DNA of 64,000 nucleotides from the IMG/VR virus record IMGVR_UViG_3300042318_001133, positions 15,562 to 79,561 of that record, one strand, 5' to 3'. How positions within the stretch are numbered: the stretch's first letter is position 1; each line of letters opens with the position of its first letter. Below are positions 2,998 through 15,848 of the stretch, in pieces. Made by a program: the position numbers and the translations under genes. This DNA comes from a virus (Duplodnaviria; Caudoviricetes). The notes below the pieces were generated by a model. That model was not told the origin of the DNA and searched no databases. It saw only the letters and a program-made list of their open reading frames with translations.

Positions 2998-3813
2998 TTA
3001 TTGGATTAAATTGTTGATCCAATCGATATTCTGCTTAATTAGCGGAAAATGTTTTTCATCGTATGGTAAATTAAAATCTACCTCCAATTGAATTTTGCCA
3101 TTTACAAGTCCTCTTCCAGAGTCATCGAAAGCGATGCCATTAATTGCATGCCAGAATGCTGTAGATGAATCATTTGTATCTGCAACTCCCAACATTCGCA
3201 TCATCATCAACTCTCTTGGATCTGCACATCCTAAATAGTGATGCTTTACTCTTTCATCGATAATTCCTTGCTCCTTTAAATATGCCGTAGCGTATGTTCG
3301 ATTGAATGAGATGTCTTCAGTTCCAGTCTTTGAACAGAATGCATTTGGAATACCCATAATACTCATTCCAATCCATTGCACTTCCTCAAGAGCCGTAAGT
3401 GCTCTATAGCAAGAGATCCATCCCTTCCAGTCTCCTTTTTGAGATTGTGGAACTGCCATCAACTTAACTGAAGGATCGAAGTAGTCGTGATATCTTTTTG
3501 AAAATGCTGTAGTTTGAATTACCGTCTTCTCCCAATGTTCGAATGGATAGTCAGGAGCAACTACAATATCTGGAGTAAATCCTGCACCTCCAATTAAACG
3601 AAACATCTCATCTGCCTCTAATGGTCTTTTGAACTCAAACGCTCCATTGTCTACGATAATGTAATCTCCCTGCTCTTTACGTTTCTTGTAGAAGTCGCAA
3701 TATGCTTTATCTTCCAGTAAATGAGCCAATAGTAAGTGAATAGTAACGTCTTTCGGTACTAAATGTAAATACGCCGTTGGCGCAATAAAACAGTGTTGAA
3801 AATTCTTTTGCAT
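2998..3813 (-). CDS. TGT/DpdA-like guanine transglycosylase-fold protein (divergent)
   Basis: Motif order IIVDNGAFE, VVAPDYP, LMAVPQ, HHYLG, DTNDSST parallels TGT/DpdA motifs (DSGxF, xxD, HxLG, DSxDSS); lies in a folE/queD/queE cluster. Confidence 0.65.
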   Translation of the reverse strand: MQKNFQHCFIAPTAYLHLVPKDVTIHLLLAHLLEDKAYCDFYKKRKEQGDYIIVDNGAFEFKRPLEADEMFRLIGGAGFTPDIVVAPDYPFEHWEKTVIQTTAFSKRYHDYFDPSVKLMAVPQSQKGDWKGWISCYRALTALEEVQWIGMSIMGIPNAFCSKTGTEDISFNRTYATAYLKEQGIIDERVKHHYLGCADPRELMMMRMLGVADTNDSSTAFWHAINGIAFDDSGRGLVNGKIQLEVDFNLPYDEKHFPLIKQNIDWINNLIQ

Positions 3814-3815
3814 TG

Positions 3816-4319
3816 CTATGAATTTAGTTTAATTAATACATTTGGTAGCATTTTGAAAACATGCTCAAGTTTATATAATCCCAGTTCAGCATCCTTTGCT
3901 CGCGCTCTCTCAAAAGAAACGTCATCTTTACGATCCGCTCTGGAATAGAATCGCTCCTTCAAAATCTCTGAAGGTACCTGCAACCAAATAGGTTGAATTG
4001 AAAGATGTATCGATTCACACTCTTCCAGAATAGCATCAAAGATACTTTCTTGACGTATTCCTTCGATGATCACTTTTCTTCCACTTGCAAGGGACTTCTT
4101 CATTTGTGTAATCATTTCAGTTGCAATCATCTGATCAAGATGTGCCGTCTCAGCTAATTTTGATCGCTCAAAGGCGCCCGATATCATCTTTACTACATCG
4201 GATGTAGTAATTTGATCGTGAGTATCTGAGAACGTCTTGCAGAACGTGTTTTTTCCACTGCACAACTCGCCACATACGAAGATGATTTGATTATTCTGTA
4301 ATTTCGGCTCCGTTTTCAT
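3816..4319 (-). CDS. P-loop nucleoside monophosphate kinase-like protein
   Basis: Walker A GELCSGKNT, IIEGIRQ, LID-like ILKERFYSRADRKDD; NMP/dephospho-CoA kinase architecture. Confidence 0.7.
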   Translation of the reverse strand: MKTEPKLQNNQIIFVCGELCSGKNTFCKTFSDTHDQITTSDVVKMISGAFERSKLAETAHLDQMIATEMITQMKKSLASGRKVIIEGIRQESIFDAILEECESIHLSIQPIWLQVPSEILKERFYSRADRKDDVSFERARAKDAELGLYKLEHVFKMLPNVLIKLNS

Positions 4320-4638
4320 TGTCTTCTAATATTGAACAGTAAACTAAATCAAATCGCTGGAATAACTCTCTTGCCAACATTTCACAGCTCATAGCTCCAA
4401 GTAAATACGATCTTAGTTGTAGGTCGAAATACTTACTCAGGTAATCTAAGATGTCGCGCTTAAACATGATAATTTCAACATCACGATCGTCGTGTGTAAC
4501 TCGCTTCTTACAAGTTACGAAAAACTTGTGGCGGTGTAGGTCACTTAAAAAGGCCACCTCAGGCAGCATCTCTTTTGCTGCAGGCCAATTATGAATTCCA
4601 TCGAACTCTAAATTGACGATGATGTTTGTTTTAGACAT
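4291..4638 (-). CDS. QueD-like T-fold paralog, candidate DpdL-type 7-carboxy-7-deazaguanine decarboxylase
   Basis: LSDLHRHKF (LxxxHRHxF) in place of QueD CxxxHGH; HDDRDVEII and SCEMLA; ATG at 4638 (MSKTNII) preferred over track start 4650. Confidence 0.6.
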   Translation of the reverse strand: MSKTNIIVNLEFDGIHNWPAAKEMLPEVAFLSDLHRHKFFVTCKKRVTHDDRDVEIIMFKRDILDYLSKYFDLQLRSYLLGAMSCEMLARELFQRFDLVYCSILEDNENGAEITE

Positions 4639-5773
4639 AGTCGTTTTCAATTAATAATTTATATGCATGTTTAATTACTCTTTGTTTATTTTTAGGATTG
4701 ATTTTAATCTTAATGCCCATCACATCTTCAACTGTATTGCAAATTTCTCTCGCTGTTAATTGCTGCAAATCCCAGAAATCTTCCACAATCGCCTCAGATA
4801 ATGTAGTTGTTGCTTTTTTGAGTGTTGTATACTTACTTTTTGGATTAACTACTGTCAAATAATCTACCTCAACTCCACACAATCTCGACAAACATATTCT
4901 CAAATCACTTGCATGTAAAGATAAGACTGAAGTATAGTCATCGTCACGATATCCTCCAAAGAGAGATAGCGTCACGGGTACGATAATTTGGTGCTCCGAT
5001 TCCATTGCAGCAACCCACGCATAGAAAATCTCTGAACATCTCAACCACTCTTCTGTAGAACACTGATGACCTAACTGATCCCATTCATGAGAATCGGCTC
5101 CATGACACCACACTACGTAATGTACTTCGTTATTCAAAAAAGCTTTCGTCAACTTTACTAAAGCCTTAGTAAAATCTTTCAAATAAGCTGCATGAGATCC
5201 TTGCGGATTGATATTGAAGGGAATTGCTTCACGTAGATCGGAAACAAACCTTTTCGAGTCTTCAATACTGTTTCCGAAGTGGCCGTCTAAATCTAAAAAA
5301 GCAGCCTTGTTGCCAGTCTCTCTATAAATTTTAGTCGCAGCAATAACTTGACCAGAAAAAGTACAAAAACCAGAACCTTGATCAGGTTTTGCGTGATGAA
5401 AGCCTGAAGTTGGACTGAATGTAATTGTCGAAGGTCTCTCTATTGCAGACAGCATCGCTTCATACAGACTTGCATTTGTGTACGTCAAACTATCAACCAA
5501 AGACAGACTCCATGGAAGTCCATTAGATTTATATTGACCTACACCAGTGAATACATCTTTAACATATCGTTTCGTATGAGCAATCTGAAAGTCTCGAGGA
5601 GTAAATGGCTCGAATGTATCGTTAATGGTAAGAAATTCACCAAATCCATTGTCGCGTAGATATTGCATCAATAGCGCTGGCTTCATTGGCGATTTCGAAT
5701 ACGACTTCTCACGAATATCGTTAGTACAGACTTGCTTTGGCGTATAAAACACCTCTATCTTGCGCGCTCTCAT
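4631..5773 (-). CDS. histone deacetylase/AcuC-family Zn-dependent amidohydrolase
   Basis: SGFHHA, GSGFCTFS, LDLDGHFGNS, HGADSHEWDQLG, LFGGY; likely start ATG at 5773 (MRARKIEV). Confidence 0.85.
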   Translation of the reverse strand: MRARKIEVFYTPKQVCTNDIREKSYSKSPMKPALLMQYLRDNGFGEFLTINDTFEPFTPRDFQIAHTKRYVKDVFTGVGQYKSNGLPWSLSLVDSLTYTNASLYEAMLSAIERPSTITFSPTSGFHHAKPDQGSGFCTFSGQVIAATKIYRETGNKAAFLDLDGHFGNSIEDSKRFVSDLREAIPFNINPQGSHAAYLKDFTKALVKLTKAFLNNEVHYVVWCHGADSHEWDQLGHQCSTEEWLRCSEIFYAWVAAMESEHQIIVPVTLSLFGGYRDDDYTSVLSLHASDLRICLSRLCGVEVDYLTVVNPKSKYTTLKKATTTLSEAIVEDFWDLQQLTAREICNTVEDVMGIKIKINPKNKQRVIKHAYKLLIENDYV

Positions 5774-5774
5774 A

Positions 5775-5972
5775 TTAGTTAAAGTAATATAAAAGTGAAA
5801 TACCAATTACTGTGAAGATTGCAGCATATACCAGTGTACGTCTGAAGGGTCTCATCAAATCTTCAATATCTTCAGATGGGCCCATTTTCTTGAAGCACCA
5901 AATAGTATCTATTATACAAGTAACAATGAAGGTTGCCAGTGTTACGATCATTACGATTGCGTTTGTTTCCAT
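5775..5972 (-). CDS. small two-TM membrane protein (65 aa)
   Basis: Two hydrophobic stretches; first gene downstream of the site B promoter. Confidence 0.55.
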   Translation of the reverse strand: METNAIVMIVTLATFIVTCIIDTIWCFKKMGPSEDIEDLMRPFRRTLVYAAIFTVIGISLLYYFN

Positions 5973-6018
5973 GTTTACGATTTTAATAATTTGTTTCGAT
6001 AAAGATACACCAACAAAT

Positions 6019-6039
6019 TAGATATACAACGTATATCTT
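6019..6039 (-). promoter_or_regulatory. promoter/operator site B (perfect 8-3-8 palindrome)
   Basis: AGATATAC-aac-GTATATCT at 6020..6038; a second TATCTTTA element lies just downstream on the minus strand. Confidence 0.65.
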
Positions 6040-6053
6040 TTAAAATGTGAGAA

Positions 6054-6100
6054 TAAAAAACCTCCCATAACTATTTTACCAGTATTTCGGGAGGTTTTTA
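6054..6100 (-). terminator. intrinsic terminator, possibly bidirectional
   Basis: AAAAACCTCCC ... GGGAGGTTTTT inverted repeat with A/T tracts on both sides, after the stop of 6108..6620. Confidence 0.7.
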
Positions 6101-6107
6101 AATGGAA

Positions 6108-6620
6108 TTATTTTATATCTTTTTCACCCTGGAACTGTCCTGCATACTCTTCCGACAATTGAGTTTCTGCCATTAAGATCTGAGCAACGCGAGATCCGTA
6201 TTCGATAGTTACAGTATTGTGAACTACCATTACTGCACCCATGAATTCAGTCTTAAATCCTGGATCGTAAACTGCGCTTTTAATTTCTACCCCCATTCTC
6301 AATAGCGAAGATCTATGTACGATCTCCGCTTTGATGTTATTCGGCAGACTGCAACCCTGATGAAATGTAATTGAATATACTCCTGGAGCAAGCGCCCACA
6401 GCTTCTCTTTTTCGTTATGAGGATTAATCATAAGAGGAACAGGAATGTATGCGGATTGATCGATATCCGATCCGCTTTGCGTTAGTTTGTGATTACCTGA
6501 GCAGATCTGCTTAACTTGATGTAGTGTTAAGTCATATCCAACTTGAGCGGCTTTTCCAAAGTGTTTAAATTGATCATTGAATACTAAAATTGATTCAATA
6601 TTTGCTGCATTAAGATACAT
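6108..6620 (-). CDS. trimeric dUTPase/dCTP deaminase-fold protein (archaeal dUTPase-like)
   Basis: GYDLTL, HRSSLLRMG, AVYDPGF, C-terminal YAGQFQGE; the deaminase Glu position appears to be non-acidic (GAVMVVHN). Confidence 0.75.
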   Translation of the reverse strand: MYLNAANIESILVFNDQFKHFGKAAQVGYDLTLHQVKQICSGNHKLTQSGSDIDQSAYIPVPLMINPHNEKEKLWALAPGVYSITFHQGCSLPNNIKAEIVHRSSLLRMGVEIKSAVYDPGFKTEFMGAVMVVHNTVTIEYGSRVAQILMAETQLSEEYAGQFQGEKDIK

Positions 6621-6644
6621 AAAACGATTCTTTAAAGTGAATTA

Positions 6645-6665
6645 TAAATATATGAAGTATATCTT
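6645..6665 (-). promoter_or_regulatory. promoter/operator site C
   Basis: Minus strand aAGATATAC-ttc-ATATATTTA, 24 nt upstream of the 6620 start. Confidence 0.6.
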
Positions 6666-6669
6666 TATT

Positions 6670-7185
6670 TTAATCTTTATCAACCCTATAGATAGAAGGA
6701 ATGTTGCGATTATAAAGGGCGTTATCTAATCCATATCCATATACCCAATCATTCTTATCTGCATTGAATACGAAGAAGTCTGGAGGCATAATTGTCGGAT
6801 CATCTCGACGAATTAATGTGCATGTAGCAATCGATGCCGGGATAGAGTTCTCGTTGATTTTTTCAATGATCTTCAACATCGTTCCTCCCGTGTCATAGAT
6901 ATCATCTACAATGATAACGTGCTGATTATTTAGATCAAGATCCCATAACTTTGTAAAGAACACATTTCCGGCCTTTTTATCTTTGCCGTAACTTGAGCAG
7001 CCTACGAAGTCGATCTTCATATCAATATGAATGTGTCGCATTAGATCTGCCATAAAAATGACAGCACCATTCAACACTCCCAACATAACAATTTCTTTTC
7101 CTTCGTAGGCAATATTAATTGCCTGAGCAACTTCAACGACAGCAGACTGAATCTCGTCTGTCGTTCTCCATTCAGAACACTTCAT
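6670..7185 (-). CDS. hpt: hypoxanthine-guanine phosphoribosyltransferase-like protein
   Basis: GVLNGAVIFMADL, SSYG, PRPP loop IIVDDIYDTGGT, WVYGYGLD, RNIP. Confidence 0.9.
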   Translation of the reverse strand: MKCSEWRTTDEIQSAVVEVAQAINIAYEGKEIVMLGVLNGAVIFMADLMRHIHIDMKIDFVGCSSYGKDKKAGNVFFTKLWDLDLNNQHVIIVDDIYDTGGTMLKIIEKINENSIPASIATCTLIRRDDPTIMPPDFFVFNADKNDWVYGYGLDNALYNRNIPSIYRVDKD

Positions 7186-7186
7186 A

Positions 7187-7819
7187 TTACTTCAAATCAG
7201 CAATGAAGCGATAGAATTCATGTCTCGTACCAATCTCATTTGTAAAGAATAGTCCAGACAATTTAGCAGTCTTCATTGTAGAATCATGTCGAACACCTCT
7301 ACATGAAGCACAAGTATGTTTTGCTTCAATCATGACAGCGATACCTAAAGCGTCAGGAACTAAATCCTTCAAATAATTATGTATTTGTTGTGTCAAGTTT
7401 TCTTGAACTTGAGGACGTCTTGAGAAGTAGTTTACTACACGATTCAATTTAGATAAGCCAATTACTTTTCCGTTTGGATTGGGAATGTATGCTACGTGAG
7501 CTTTTCCCGTAAATGCTAAGTGATGGTGTGAACACATACTTACCATTTCAATGTCTCCTTGGAATACAATTCCGTCGTAATTGTCCGTATTTTCAAATGA
7601 AGTGATTTTCGGTGGAGCTTGGAAGCATCCTTCGGCTAAATCATTTACCCACGCCTTTGCTACTCTGTTTGGAGTATCTGACGAGTGTGGATCGTTTTTA
7701 AAATCAAATCCTAAAGCTTTCATGAACTCTGCATAAGCTACTGCAGCTTTAGCGATCATTTCTGCTTTTTCTTCTTTAGTTCTTTCAATAGAACCATTTG
7801 CGCGTGTTAGCATTTCCAT
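7187..7819 (-). CDS. folE: GTP cyclohydrolase I
   Basis: [44 protein letters not shown]; real start likely MEMLTR at 7819 rather than track start 7948. Confidence 0.95.
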
Positions 7820-7860
7820 TATTACAATTTTAAGAATTACAAAATTACTACTTGAAAGGA

Positions 7861-8613
7861 TTAGACTCCTCTCTTGTCTCCATATATTACTACATGAAGT
7901 CGGTCTGTATAATTGTATCCAGATTTGGTACAAAACTCTACTAACCATTTACGATTTTTCTGAAGGGTTTCATTATCCATCCCTTCTGGCATTAGCCAGC
8001 ACTTATCGTTCGGTACATTCAGTTCTTTTTGAAGTACGAGAAATTCTTTCAAAGTCGCCTCATCTGAAATGACTGGCTTTAACTGATAATCTGGATGTGA
8101 TTCGATTAACTGCAGCATCGCTGTAGTGTTCGTTCTCCACTTCTCATGTTGGATCTTATCTTTTTCAGTTACCAGTCGATCTAAGTACGGCATAACAGTT
8201 CCTGGACGCGGTGTTGAATTAGATAGCTTCGGAGAAAGTGAAATGCAATCTGCTGATGTTTGCGCAAATTCAGATCCTTCAGTTTCGATCGTAACGTGAT
8301 GTCCATAAGTCTTCGCAATGCGACAAATTTCTTGCGCCAAATCTGGATTCATTAAAGGACCTCCACCAGTCAACATTGTATGTTTGATTTGAGGATTGTC
8401 TTTGTAGAGTTTGATGACGTCATTTAACGTCGTATTGCCTTTTTCGGGCTTCCAGCTATTATGCCAAGTGTCGCAAAAGCTATTTGCAAATTGACATCTC
8501 AATCGACATCCAGTTGTTCGAATTAGAAGATGAGGAATTCCTGTAAATTTACCTTCACCTTGAACGCATGGATACATTTCATTGATTGGTACGATTTTCT
8601 GATAATCTATCAT
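7861..8613 (-). CDS. queE: 7-carboxy-7-deazaguanine synthase (radical SAM)
   Basis: [41 protein letters not shown]; likely start MIDYQK at 8613. Confidence 0.92.
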
Positions 8614-8614
8614 G

Positions 8615-9103
8615 TTACAATGTATTAAATTTCTCTTCACAGTAGATAGCACTATTGCTATCGTTTTCAAAACACTCTACTTTAATCACCTTACAGCGAC
8701 CCGCATCTGTTTTTGATAGTACTTCATTAAACTTATCGAAAACCATCTTAGCACACGACTCTGCACCCATTTTCTCCATAAAATGAACCTTACATACACC
8801 TTCCATCTGCATTGCTTCAAACAAGTCTCTATATGGATCATTTGCTTGAATTAATGTAGTGTGATCCCACATATGATTCATCCAAGACTTTAGACCGTTT
8901 CCTACTGGAGCATCTTTAAATCCTCCAAAATCAACAATCCAATTCATGTCATCTAATTGACGATCAATTTCTGGCTCAACAGAAGCGAACCACACTTTAA
9001 ACTTTAAAGCGTAACCGTGAAGCAATTCACAGTGAGAATGAGAAGCTTTCCATTGACGAATGGCAACTGAATAGTTCTCAAAAATTTTTGTTGAAATAAA
9101 CAT
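8615..9103 (-). CDS. queD: 6-carboxy-5,6,7,8-tetrahydropterin synthase
   Basis: HSHCELLHGY, WIVDFGG, WDHTTL, GAESCA, FENDSNSA. Confidence 0.9.
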   Translation of the reverse strand: MFISTKIFENYSVAIRQWKASHSHCELLHGYALKFKVWFASVEPEIDRQLDDMNWIVDFGGFKDAPVGNGLKSWMNHMWDHTTLIQANDPYRDLFEAMQMEGVCKVHFMEKMGAESCAKMVFDKFNEVLSKTDAGRCKVIKVECFENDSNSAIYCEEKFNTL

Positions 9104-9607: not shown

Positions 9608-10639
9608 TTACAATTTTTTCTGTACTTTATTAATGCTAAAATCAAGCGGTGATTCGAGCGACGCTAAAATTAATAATAATTCTTCTAAATCCAAATCTCC
9701 TGGATCGCAAGTTGAAGTAAATCCAACCTCAACTCGAGAAAATCTTTTAGTTAATTCAAATGCGTACTTTTTACTTGAATCGACTGCATCTGGATCGTAG
9801 AGTAAGATGACGTGATCGATTCCCTTATTGTATAGTTTTTGAATTTGATATTCACTTAACTTTTTACCAAAACTACAAATGCATTTGATGCTGGGATCAC
9901 TATACAATTCAAGCAATTTATCGACATTGGTCTTATCAAAGAAACCCTCCACAATAATGACTACTTCAGTTTCACTAACAATTTCATCAATCCCCATCAA
10001 CAACTTACCAAAGTCTGTATTTACTGAGTTTTGATATCTGATGTGTCGCTGTTTTGATCCCTGCTCCTTTTTCTTGTTATTGTATTGATCTATCCAAGCC
10101 TTTGAACGAATACTTCGACCTACAAACCCTTTACATTCCCCATCCTCTAAAATCAGGGCAACTACATAATCTTTGAAAGATCTCAATAGCGAAGTCCTAC
10201 CGATCTGGTATTGATTAAATTGCTCATCGACAAAGCCTCGCTCGCGCAAATACTCATCTTCAAAGCATCTTCTCCATCCAAGTGGAGGAGTTTTTTTAGG
10301 TACTGAAAGATCTAATGGCTCAACAACAACTCTCGATACACGCTTCTCGATCTTCTTTTCAAGTAAGGATCCAACTGCAACTTCACGTCCGAAGTCGATA
10401 AGGTTTAACTTACCGAGCTTTGCAAAAAGTTTACGGATTCGTCCATTTTCACCGCACTTCTTACATTCCCAAAACCAAGACAAATTATCGCCACGCTCAT
10501 TACGCTTTGTAGTTTCTCTTTGAACGTAGAGGTGATTTGCACTTTCGCAAAATGGACAAGTAGCGACATAGTGCGTTCCTGTTCCATTTTTCGAAACGTC
10601 GGTTAAATTTTCGTAAACGATCGAATCCGTAACTCTCAC
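9608..10639 (-). CDS. DNA primase (Zn-binding + TOPRIM)
   Basis: CPFC...ECKKCG zinc motif; IIVEGFFD and LLYDPDA TOPRIM acidic motifs. Confidence 0.88.
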   Translation of the reverse strand: MRVTDSIVYENLTDVSKNGTGTHYVATCPFCESANHLYVQRETTKRNERGDNLSWFWECKKCGENGRIRKLFAKLGKLNLIDFGREVAVGSLLEKKIEKRVSRVVVEPLDLSVPKKTPPLGWRRCFEDEYLRERGFVDEQFNQYQIGRTSLLRSFKDYVVALILEDGECKGFVGRSIRSKAWIDQYNNKKKEQGSKQRHIRYQNSVNTDFGKLLMGIDEIVSETEVVIIVEGFFDKTNVDKLLELYSDPSIKCICSFGKKLSEYQIQKLYNKGIDHVILLYDPDAVDSSKKYAFELTKRFSRVEVGFTSTCDPGDLDLEELLLILASLESPLDFSINKVQKKL

Positions 10640-11094
10640 TATTTTCCAGTTGAACCAAATCCACCCTCTCCTCGATTCGTGTCTCCTAAAGAGTCAACTT
10701 CCTCTAATTCAATTACTGGGCATGGTAAAATAATTAACTGAACACACTTTTCTCCTACAGCGTATTCTTGTATGTCGAATTGTGCATCTTGATCATTTTC
10801 ATCAAAATTGCGCCACGGCGTTCTTATGAAGCGAGCCTTAACGTCACCTCTATAATCTGAGTCGATAATTCCAACGGAATTCTTCAACATTAAATCCTTT
10901 TTCGTTACAGAGCTACGTGGCACCAACATTCCAAAATAACCTTCTGGAATTTCAACTGCAATGTTTGTATTTATTTCGATAAATTGACTCTCTATCGAAA
11001 TCGATGTTGCGAACAAATCAAATGCCGCAGATCCTACTGTAGACCTTACTGGAGTAACTGCAGCAACGTCTGTTTTTTTAAACTTCAACTTCAT
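10639..11094 (-). CDS. dut: dUTPase (canonical trimeric)
   Basis: AAFDL, PRSS, NSVGIIDSDYRG, VQL, RGEGGFGSTG: all five motifs. Confidence 0.96.
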   Translation of the reverse strand: MKLKFKKTDVAAVTPVRSTVGSAAFDLFATSISIESQFIEINTNIAVEIPEGYFGMLVPRSSVTKKDLMLKNSVGIIDSDYRGDVKARFIRTPWRNFDENDQDAQFDIQEYAVGEKCVQLIILPCPVIELEEVDSLGDTNRGEGGFGSTGK

Positions 11095-15359: not shown

Positions 15360-15848
15360 TTACAAAAATCTAATGTTAGTAAACTCTCTCAAGCGTTCTC
15401 TTAATCGAGCAACTTCTTGATTTCTTTCATCTGCTGAGGAGAATTCAACTTCAGCGTTTGCAAATGCAATTTTCGATCCTTCGTCTCTATTTATGATCAG
15501 TCTATAGTTTGGTTTTTGCCTCTTCATGTCGTATGAATCAATCGGTTGAATTGAAACCAATAATCCTACGCGCATGGTAAGTGTCTTTATGGTAATAAAG
15601 TCGATCGTTGCCGATACAGGCTCCTTCCCTTGAAAAGCATCGTTGAAGTTCTGTAATTCACTCAATACATCTCCATCGTCTTCTTGTTTCCATTTCGATA
15701 ATATTGCAGTAAATTCCTTATTCCCTAAACGCTTCGCGATTGTCGTTACATATTCAATAATTTCAGCATCGATGATAGATATCGGTCTTATTCCATCCTC
15801 ATCTTCATGAGCGTAATCACTACTCGCCTCAATTAAGTGCCTTTTCAT
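15360..15848 (-). CDS. hypothetical protein (162 aa)
   Basis: First gene after promoter site D. Confidence 0.65.
   Translation of the reverse strand: MKRHLIEASSDYAHEDEDGIRPISIIDAEIIEYVTTIAKRLGNKEFTAILSKWKQEDDGDVLSELQNFNDAFQGKEPVSATIDFITIKTLTMRVGLLVSIQPIDSYDMKRQKPNYRLIINRDEGSKIAFANAEVEFSSADERNQEVARLRERLREFTNIRFL

Follow-up and report, generated by a model that had tools for sequence, protein, structure and literature searches.

We analyzed a histone deacetylase (HDAC)-family gene of a virus of the class Caudoviricetes, located on the minus strand at positions 4631–5773 of a 64,000-nucleotide window; the window is the whole stretch of DNA analyzed (positions 15,562–79,561 of IMG/VR record IMGVR_UViG_3300042318_001133) and belongs to a 79.5-kb viral contig with an estimated completeness of 76%. 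Judged by sequence and structure ranking, the product is a predicted single-domain Zn-dependent amidohydrolase of the classical HDAC superfamily that lies nearest to class IV, and the enzyme is very probably active. Comparisons of gene content indicate that its position among genes for 7-deazaguanine DNA modification is best explained as an optional, lineage-specific insertion into that module, and not as a step of deazaguanine chemistry. The family to which it belongs recurs, in tightly conserved form, on the chromosomes of Bacteroidota and in numerous uncultivated phages. With regard to function, the explanation that we favor, and to which we give about an even chance, is that the protein serves as an accessory deacylase whose target is an acyl-amide of the host cell, most likely acyl-lysine.

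Catalytic residues, fold and class

The gene and the segment encoding its C-terminal tail are as follows:
4631..5773, minus strand: putative HDAC-family (class IV-like) Zn-dependent deacylase gene, 380 amino acids (aa) plus stop codon (PF00850, AlphaFold2 (AF2) model, Foldseek)
4634..4843, minus strand: C-terminal tail of the HDAC protein, residues 311–380, three predicted helices (AF2 model, family alignment)

The open reading frame (ORF) begins with an ATG at position 5773, and the interval given includes the stop codon. A preliminary description, made from the letters of the sequence alone, had proposed an HDAC-family enzyme at this place without giving the strand, and this was confirmed by a match to Pfam PF00850 (Hist_deacetyl; E 9.3e-21, 74.9 bits against a curated cut-off of 27.9); no match was obtained in PHROGs, NCBIfam or PADLOC. 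The protein collection that we searched contains a 351-aa form of the same protein (P0003) that starts at Met30 and is 100% identical over 92% of the query. Because residues 1–29 are conserved in homologs, with an N-terminal MRxxKI..FY block retained in the alignment of 19 sequences, we consider the 380-aa start to be correct and the 351-aa form to be too short. At the other end, the tail helices span residues 325–331, 341–352 and 363–376 of the AF2 model. When the tail was scanned by itself against Pfam (E up to 10), only chance-level rows were returned, and a guess that it might contain a SAP/HeH-like DNA-binding motif received no support.

Residue conservation was judged on the alignment of the phage HDAC with 18 homologs. 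Invariant in 19/19 sequences were the His dyad H126–H127 (SGFHHA), G135-F136-C137, the motif D161-L-D163-G-H165-F-G-N-S169 that holds the Zn ligands D163 and H165, the further Zn ligand D227 (HGADS) and the catalytic Tyr Y275 (FGGY); H126, H127, D163, H165, D227 and Y275 align to the same residues of the structures 9GZ5 and 9GKV. The catalytic elements listed in the preliminary description are thus all present, except that the Tyr is not terminal as had been stated, since approximately 105 residues follow it. The deviation of DLDGHFGNS from the usual motif, to which the same description drew attention, is real, but HFGNS in place of HHG[DN]G characterizes the family as a whole rather than this gene, and it is partly common to class IV: Leptospira HDAC11 has DLDLHQGNG, in which the second His is likewise absent. 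An inactive, scaffold-type HDAC like those of class IIa was rejected, with Tyr275 and all ligands intact.

We then compared the AF2 model of the protein (pLDDT 88) with known structures using Foldseek, and found 472 HDAC-family matches in the PDB at E ≤ 0.001, which identifies the arginase/deacetylase α/β fold. The top five rows were Vibrio cholerae HdaH (VcHdaH; 9GKY/9GKV) and Leptospira interrogans HDAC11 (9GZ5), with TM scores of 0.74–0.75 and identities of 19–20%, whereas class I/II HDACs ranked lower (rmsd 5.5–13 Å versus 3.6–3.9 Å for class IV). In agreement with Foldseek, phmmer ranked VcHdaH and L. interrogans HDAC11 first. Both are class IV, or 'cluster 5', lysine fatty-deacylases (PMC11532494, PMC13325672). 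In addition, the RPP motif before the His dyad is replaced by small residues, PTSGFHH in the phage protein versus GGGFHH in HDAC11 and SGGYHH in VcHdaH, and in cluster 5 such small residues open an extended foot pocket (motif definitions as in PMC11532494).

VcHdaH, a lysine de-decanoylase of cluster 5b (Graf et al. 2024; PDB 9GKV/9GKY), is the best Foldseek match and a near-best sequence match, and resembles the phage protein in its single-domain core of approximately 310 aa, its full Zn and catalytic set and a common G-[FL]-P-W-S stretch in loop L2. The two differ in that identity is only approximately 20%, that the phage protein has HFGNS versus HHGDG and FGGY versus GGGY, and that the phage-borne enzyme carries the C-terminal tail of approximately 70 aa. 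Among the class IV HDACs compared (L. interrogans HDAC11 and human HDAC11), L. interrogans HDAC11 (PDB 9GZ5/9RJD) was the top phmmer match (E 1e-10; TM 0.75). The phage protein shares with it a Phe 'gatekeeper' that precedes the His dyad (GFHH) and is also a feature of the clade B fatty-acid deacylases (PMC13325672), although overall identity to it is 19% and the clade-B signature Glu on loop L2 corresponds to Gly85 in the phage protein.

Linkage with 7-deazaguanine genes

The preliminary description had located the gene inside a DNA-modification operon and had suggested a substrate related to the modified base, naming co-occurrence with dpd genes as a check and homologs never linked to modification genes as the finding that would speak against it. 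We examined this linkage in both directions. Within 10 kb of HDAC, none of 51 HDAC-bearing viral loci contained FolE, QueD, QueE, DpdL or DpdA3 (0/51). When 40 HDAC-carrying viral records were searched over their whole length, FolE was detected in two (2/40), the DpdL profile in the same two (2/40) and the canonical Pfam TGT family in none (0/40); in the two positive records, the deazaguanine cluster lies 38–57 kb away from HDAC. Conversely, of the 80 best viral loci with DpdL, not one had HDAC within 10 kb (0/80). Co-occurrence with dpdA, folE, queDE and dpdL across independent lineages was therefore not observed, and the result comes close to the absence of linkage that the description itself had named, so that its base-related idea is not supported.

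Phages related by their terminases (55–61% identity) show every combination of the two: HDAC occurs in G014 with no deazaguanine genes, G041 has the latter but no HDAC, and G025 and G027 have both, 38–57 kb apart. Cellulophaga phage phiST, the DNA of which is fully substituted with 2'-deoxy-7-deazaguanine (dDG; PMC10516641), contains no HDAC homolog. Moreover, in three of the 80 DpdL-bearing loci, which have the module order of the present phage (L142, L148 and L191), the hypoxanthine-guanine phosphoribosyltransferase (HGPRT) and dUTPase-like genes run directly into those of DpdL and the kinase without HDAC; the dUTPase-like gene abuts dpdL and DpdA3 follows the kinase in L148 and L191, and L142 ends within the kinase. 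Accordingly, phiST, L148 and L191, rather than the present phage, indicate indirectly that HDAC is not needed for the modification. The neighbors of HDAC in other phage lineages are varied, and include a PD-(D/E)XK nuclease, lysis genes, thymidylate synthase, Hsp70, UvrD helicase, tail sheath and terminase. A role of HDAC at the nucleotide level was rejected for want of a chemical rationale, and a literature search on phage HDAC and 7-deazaguanine found no paper linking the two. For deazaguanine biology, the result is mainly cautionary and speaks against listing HDAC among the genes of the pathway.

The genes and signals around HDAC in the present phage are the following:
7187..9103, minus strand: folE, queE and queD (synthesis of 7-carboxy-7-deazaguanine, CDG; Pfam, NCBIfam)
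6670..7185, minus strand: HGPRT-like gene (Pfam Pribosyltran; TIGR01203, E 9e-37)
6108..6620, minus strand: dCTP-deaminase/dUTPase-fold gene, last of the upstream unit (Pfam DCD and dUTPase, NCBIfam)
6045..6100, minus strand: terminator-like hairpin and U-run between the dUTPase-like gene and orf65/HDAC (RNA fold)
5775..5972, minus strand: orf65, a hydrophobic ORF of 65 aa directly upstream of HDAC (ORF list)
4291..4638, minus strand: dpdL homolog (QueD paralog, proposed CDG decarboxylase; LxxxHRHxF motif, tblastn)
3816..4319, minus strand: P-loop (AAA_18) kinase-like gene (Pfam; homolog of phiST CGPG_00066)
2998..3813, minus strand: DpdA3-type DNA guanine transglycosylase homolog, 271 aa (tblastn)

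On the minus strand, the upstream part of this region reads primase, a 163-aa ORF, QueD, QueE, FolE, the HGPRT-like gene and the dCTP-deaminase/dUTPase-fold gene; after the hairpin follow orf65, HDAC, the 115-aa QueD paralog, the P-loop kinase-like gene and the 271-aa gene, beyond which lie three genes of no recognized function and Pol III alpha. The strong hairpin (–18.5 kcal/mol, z –4.75, equaled by 0/200 shuffles) and a 135-nt spacer divide the QueD-to-dUTPase-like genes from orf65, HDAC, DpdL, the kinase and DpdA3. The gene therefore does lie among the module genes, as the preliminary description had it, but probably not in one uninterrupted operon with the upstream genes. A scan for sigma-70 promoters found no more sites than in shuffled sequences, and we propose no promoter for the spacer before orf65; orf65 had no tblastn match in related loci and no counterpart in syntenic relatives. 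The overlap with the start of a QueD paralog that had been noted earlier was borne out and amounts to 8 nt, shared by the start of dpdL, from its ATG, and the end of HDAC, with its stop codon (ATGTCTAA).

The paralog is of the DpdL type: it carries LSDLHRHKF, which fits the LxxxHRHxF signature of the proposed CDG decarboxylase DpdL (PMC10516641), and it matched phiST, ACP17 and others by tblastn. The 271-aa protein matched by tblastn the region of phiST CGPG_00065 (DpdA3) and a Flavobacterium phage 'DNA guanine transglycosylase', with no detection by Pfam TGT, and neither QueC nor a canonical TGT was found in the 79.5-kb record. From the DpdL signature, the DpdA3 homolog and the phiST-like order, we infer a module of the phiST type, which would make dDG. 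The phiST module itself is QueD-QueE-FolE-MazG-DpdL-CGPG_00066-DpdA3 (Cui, Hutinet et al., NAR 2023), with the same order, homologous DpdL, P-loop protein and DpdA3, and QueC likewise absent; at the corresponding place, however, phiST has a MazG-like gene without HDAC, HGPRT or the dUTPase-fold gene, and in the present phage HDAC and orf65 stand inserted before dpdL. A megablast search of 12 kb against deposited phages gave no match.

Several observations about the closest relatives of the gene weigh against an incidental insertion. The adjacency of HDAC and dpdL is confined to one clade (SH-aLRT 99) of five contigs (the present phage, L002/L003, L057, L058 and L059); the HDACs of the relatives in this clade show 57–67% identity to the present one over the whole protein and 63–70% over the catalytic core. 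All five have the order HDAC, dpdL (with the same 8-nt overlap), kinase and DpdA3; the L057 contig extends for 3.2 kb upstream of HDAC, and folE, queE and queD are all absent from that part. The clade is also distinguished by the three-helix C-terminal tail, which is absent from most of the family. In addition, the HDAC and DpdL segment of the present phage (4291–5773) and that of L002 (L002:10001–11492) show approximately 69% aa identity, while the flanking TerL, DnaB, QueD/E, FolE, HGPRT, kinase and DpdA3 of the same pair are 85–97% identical; joint divergence of HDAC and DpdL between such close phages points to mosaic replacement, as if the two had been exchanged as a unit. Finally, heterologous DpdL and DpdA gave no dDG in E. 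coli, and the authors suggest that further enzymes may be needed (PMC10516641).

These points could indicate that the tailed clade has been recruited into the deazaguanine system to work with DpdL, the kinase and DpdA3. The enzyme might then hydrolyze an amide-bearing 7-deazaguanine (host-made 7-amido-7-deazaguanine to CDG, or a formyl- or acyl-aminomethyl derivative) and so make the substrate of DpdL, or it might activate or control DpdL or DpdA3 by deacylation; if so, an HDAC-fold enzyme would for the first time be seen to act in the modification of nucleobases or DNA. We consider such recruitment unlikely, and a genuine lineage-specific addition in which the tail docks HDAC to the module somewhat less likely still. 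The route from CDG to 7-deazaguanine contains no amide bond (pathway as in PMC10516641), and no QueC was found in the record. In phiST, too, the dpdL start overlaps the gene upstream of it, so the overlap is not specific to HDAC, and relatives with the same module, like phiST, do without HDAC. The five contigs are close kin and hence represent one evolutionary event. Furthermore, the family outside the clade has 88 alignment columns conserved at ≥90%, and all clade members retain 82 of these without change. The few clade-specific substitutions in the core are conservative and spare the catalytic motifs; the chemistry would therefore be the same as in members from phages and bacteria that lack deazaguanine genes.

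Family distribution, substrate and role

Among deposited phages, HDAC was present in 6 of 50,697 records (four metagenomic huge phages and two of Rhodococcus phage E3), so that the earlier remark that such genes are uncommon in phages holds for deposited genomes; in uncultivated viral contigs, at least 56 relatives were found. More than 1100 homologs were obtained in all, at about 50–60% identity, and 200 relatives in species-representative genomes belong mostly to Bacteroidota (Flavobacteriales, Crocinitomicaceae, Saprospiraceae and Cytophagales), with Leptospiraceae and others also represented. This is a large, strongly conserved deacylase branch common to Bacteroidota and their phages.

We favor the following course of events. 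In this phage lineage, HDAC would have been inserted between the two halves of a phiST-type module, after the terminator hairpin and directly upstream of dpdL, and would be co-transcribed and co-expressed with DpdL, the kinase and DpdA3. As the chemistry of the family suggests, a water molecule bound to Zn (ligands D163, H165 and D227) would be activated by the His dyad and Tyr275 and would hydrolyze an N-acyl amide. We expect a substrate that Bacteroidota cells have in common; acyl-lysine on proteins of the host or the phage, with acyl groups from acetyl to medium-chain, is the most likely. Deacylation would reprogram the infected cell or erase a host acylation, and the C-terminal tail probably retargets the enzyme. 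The preliminary description had proposed proteins, polyamines and the reversal of host acylation; these are not distinguishable by sequence, but the affinity to class IV favors acyl-lysine over acetylpolyamine. If the substrate of such phage 'erasers' were found, a new kind of phage–host interaction, the reversal of acylation, would be opened to study.

The acyl-lysine proposal has to be set against loop L2. In HDAC8 and clade-B HDAC11, an acidic residue of this loop binds the backbone of the peptide (PMC13325672); it aligns to Gly85 in the phage protein, a counter-argument softened by the Gly at the equivalent position of the peptide-active VcHdaH. It must also be borne in mind that the fold, the catalytic set, the family distribution and the optional, lineage-specific linkage are observed, and that activity, substrate class and physiological role are deduced. 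The missing acidic residue would also suit a small-molecule amidohydrolase that frees a polyamine (e.g. spermidine from N-acetylspermidine) or another amine for replication and DNA packaging. HDAC-family acetylpolyamine amidohydrolases (APAHs) encoded by viruses have been proven biochemically in Imitervirales (PMC9992855), and these are so far the virus-encoded members of the superfamily with an established role, an auxiliary metabolic one; in several phage lineages HDAC lies among genes for replication or nucleotide metabolism. However, class IV deacylases are the closest matches by sequence and structure, the 60 sequence matches and the Foldseek matches listed include no chain with an APAH name and no specific similarity to characterized APAHs, and there are no polyamine genes nearby. 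The giant-virus APAHs moreover belong to a different, class II-like branch, in eukaryotic viruses. We therefore regard this alternative as improbable.

A different role is suggested by the chromosomal relatives. At 24 of 79 genomic loci, HDAC lies beside a VWA protein and a conserved protein of 376–395 aa, in co-directional or divergent orientation; some chromosomal loci are beside integrases, and the nearest cellular relatives of the phage HDAC occur in this VWA-HDAC-376-aa operon type. Besides, in a protein of 688 aa (P0247; L222:8001–10067), an ADP-ribosylglycohydrolase (ARH) domain (PF03747) is fused to an HDAC of the family with 46% identity to the core, the fusion gene adjoins integrase genes, and L004/L005 have a free-standing ARH gene at a distance of two genes upstream from HDAC. 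The fusion and the neighboring ARH gene hint, if weakly, at an 'eraser' function under conflict or stress, which would also fit the reading that we favor. The phage protein could then be a stolen eraser that neutralizes a Bacteroidota VWA-HDAC-376-aa (or ARH-linked) conflict system, or undoes the modification it makes; a precedent is reported in orphan phage antidotes against DarTG1 (PMC11825919). For this idea, we see a rather slim chance: PADLOC matched no member, the 376-aa partner has no clear fold match, the putative defense role of the module is read from gene context, and the neighbors of HDAC in phages are diverse.

Examples of the chromosomal operon are found in loci L060–L139 (e.g. 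L061:7311–10092 and L087:6038–8951), and its VWA protein has the MIDAS motif DxSGS. In the 376–395-aa partner, a CxxxxC...CxxC cluster is invariant and the C-terminus is predicted to be winged-helix-like. An atlas lookup returned 'hypothetical protein' only, the AF2 model gave only weak archaemetzincin-like fold matches (E 2e-3, TM 0.6 on the target), and no HExxH motif was seen in the translated protein or in the alignment consensus.

Observations on the surrounding module

The surrounding module (DpdL, P-loop kinase, DpdA3, HGPRT and dUTPase-fold enzyme) is more informative than HDAC for how dDG genomes arise. It occupies 2998–9103 on the minus strand and appears as a phiST-type dDG module extended by the HGPRT-like gene, a second dUTPase-fold gene and the P-loop kinase. 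The kinase-like protein shows 34% identity (E 6e-24) to phiST CGPG_00066 and matches Chryseobacterium phage MA9V-3 (E 4e-25); CGPG_00066 was stated to have no homologs in other deazaguanine phages (PMC10516641). With kinase homologs in both phiST and MA9V-3, DpdL, kinase and DpdA3 look like a conserved trio.

Two dUTPase-fold genes are present on the minus strand, a canonical dUTPase at 10639–11094 and the DCD/dUTPase-like paralog at 6108–6620 within the module. The latter stands at the position of the MazG-like pyrophosphatase of phiST and may clear a competing dNTP. In one reading, HGPRT and the kinase would recycle guanine released by DpdA3 into GTP for FolE.

The dpdL gene of L058 (L058:9193–10059) is an ORF of 288 aa. 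Its first six or so codons are those of a normal DpdL, after which come an HNH-endonuclease-like segment of approximately 170 aa and then the DpdL domain, and it may have arisen by fusion or by the in-frame insertion of a homing endonuclease. Other long ORFs that contain DpdL are those of Chryseobacterium phage MA9V-3 (293 aa) and of G025 and G027 (309–363 aa).

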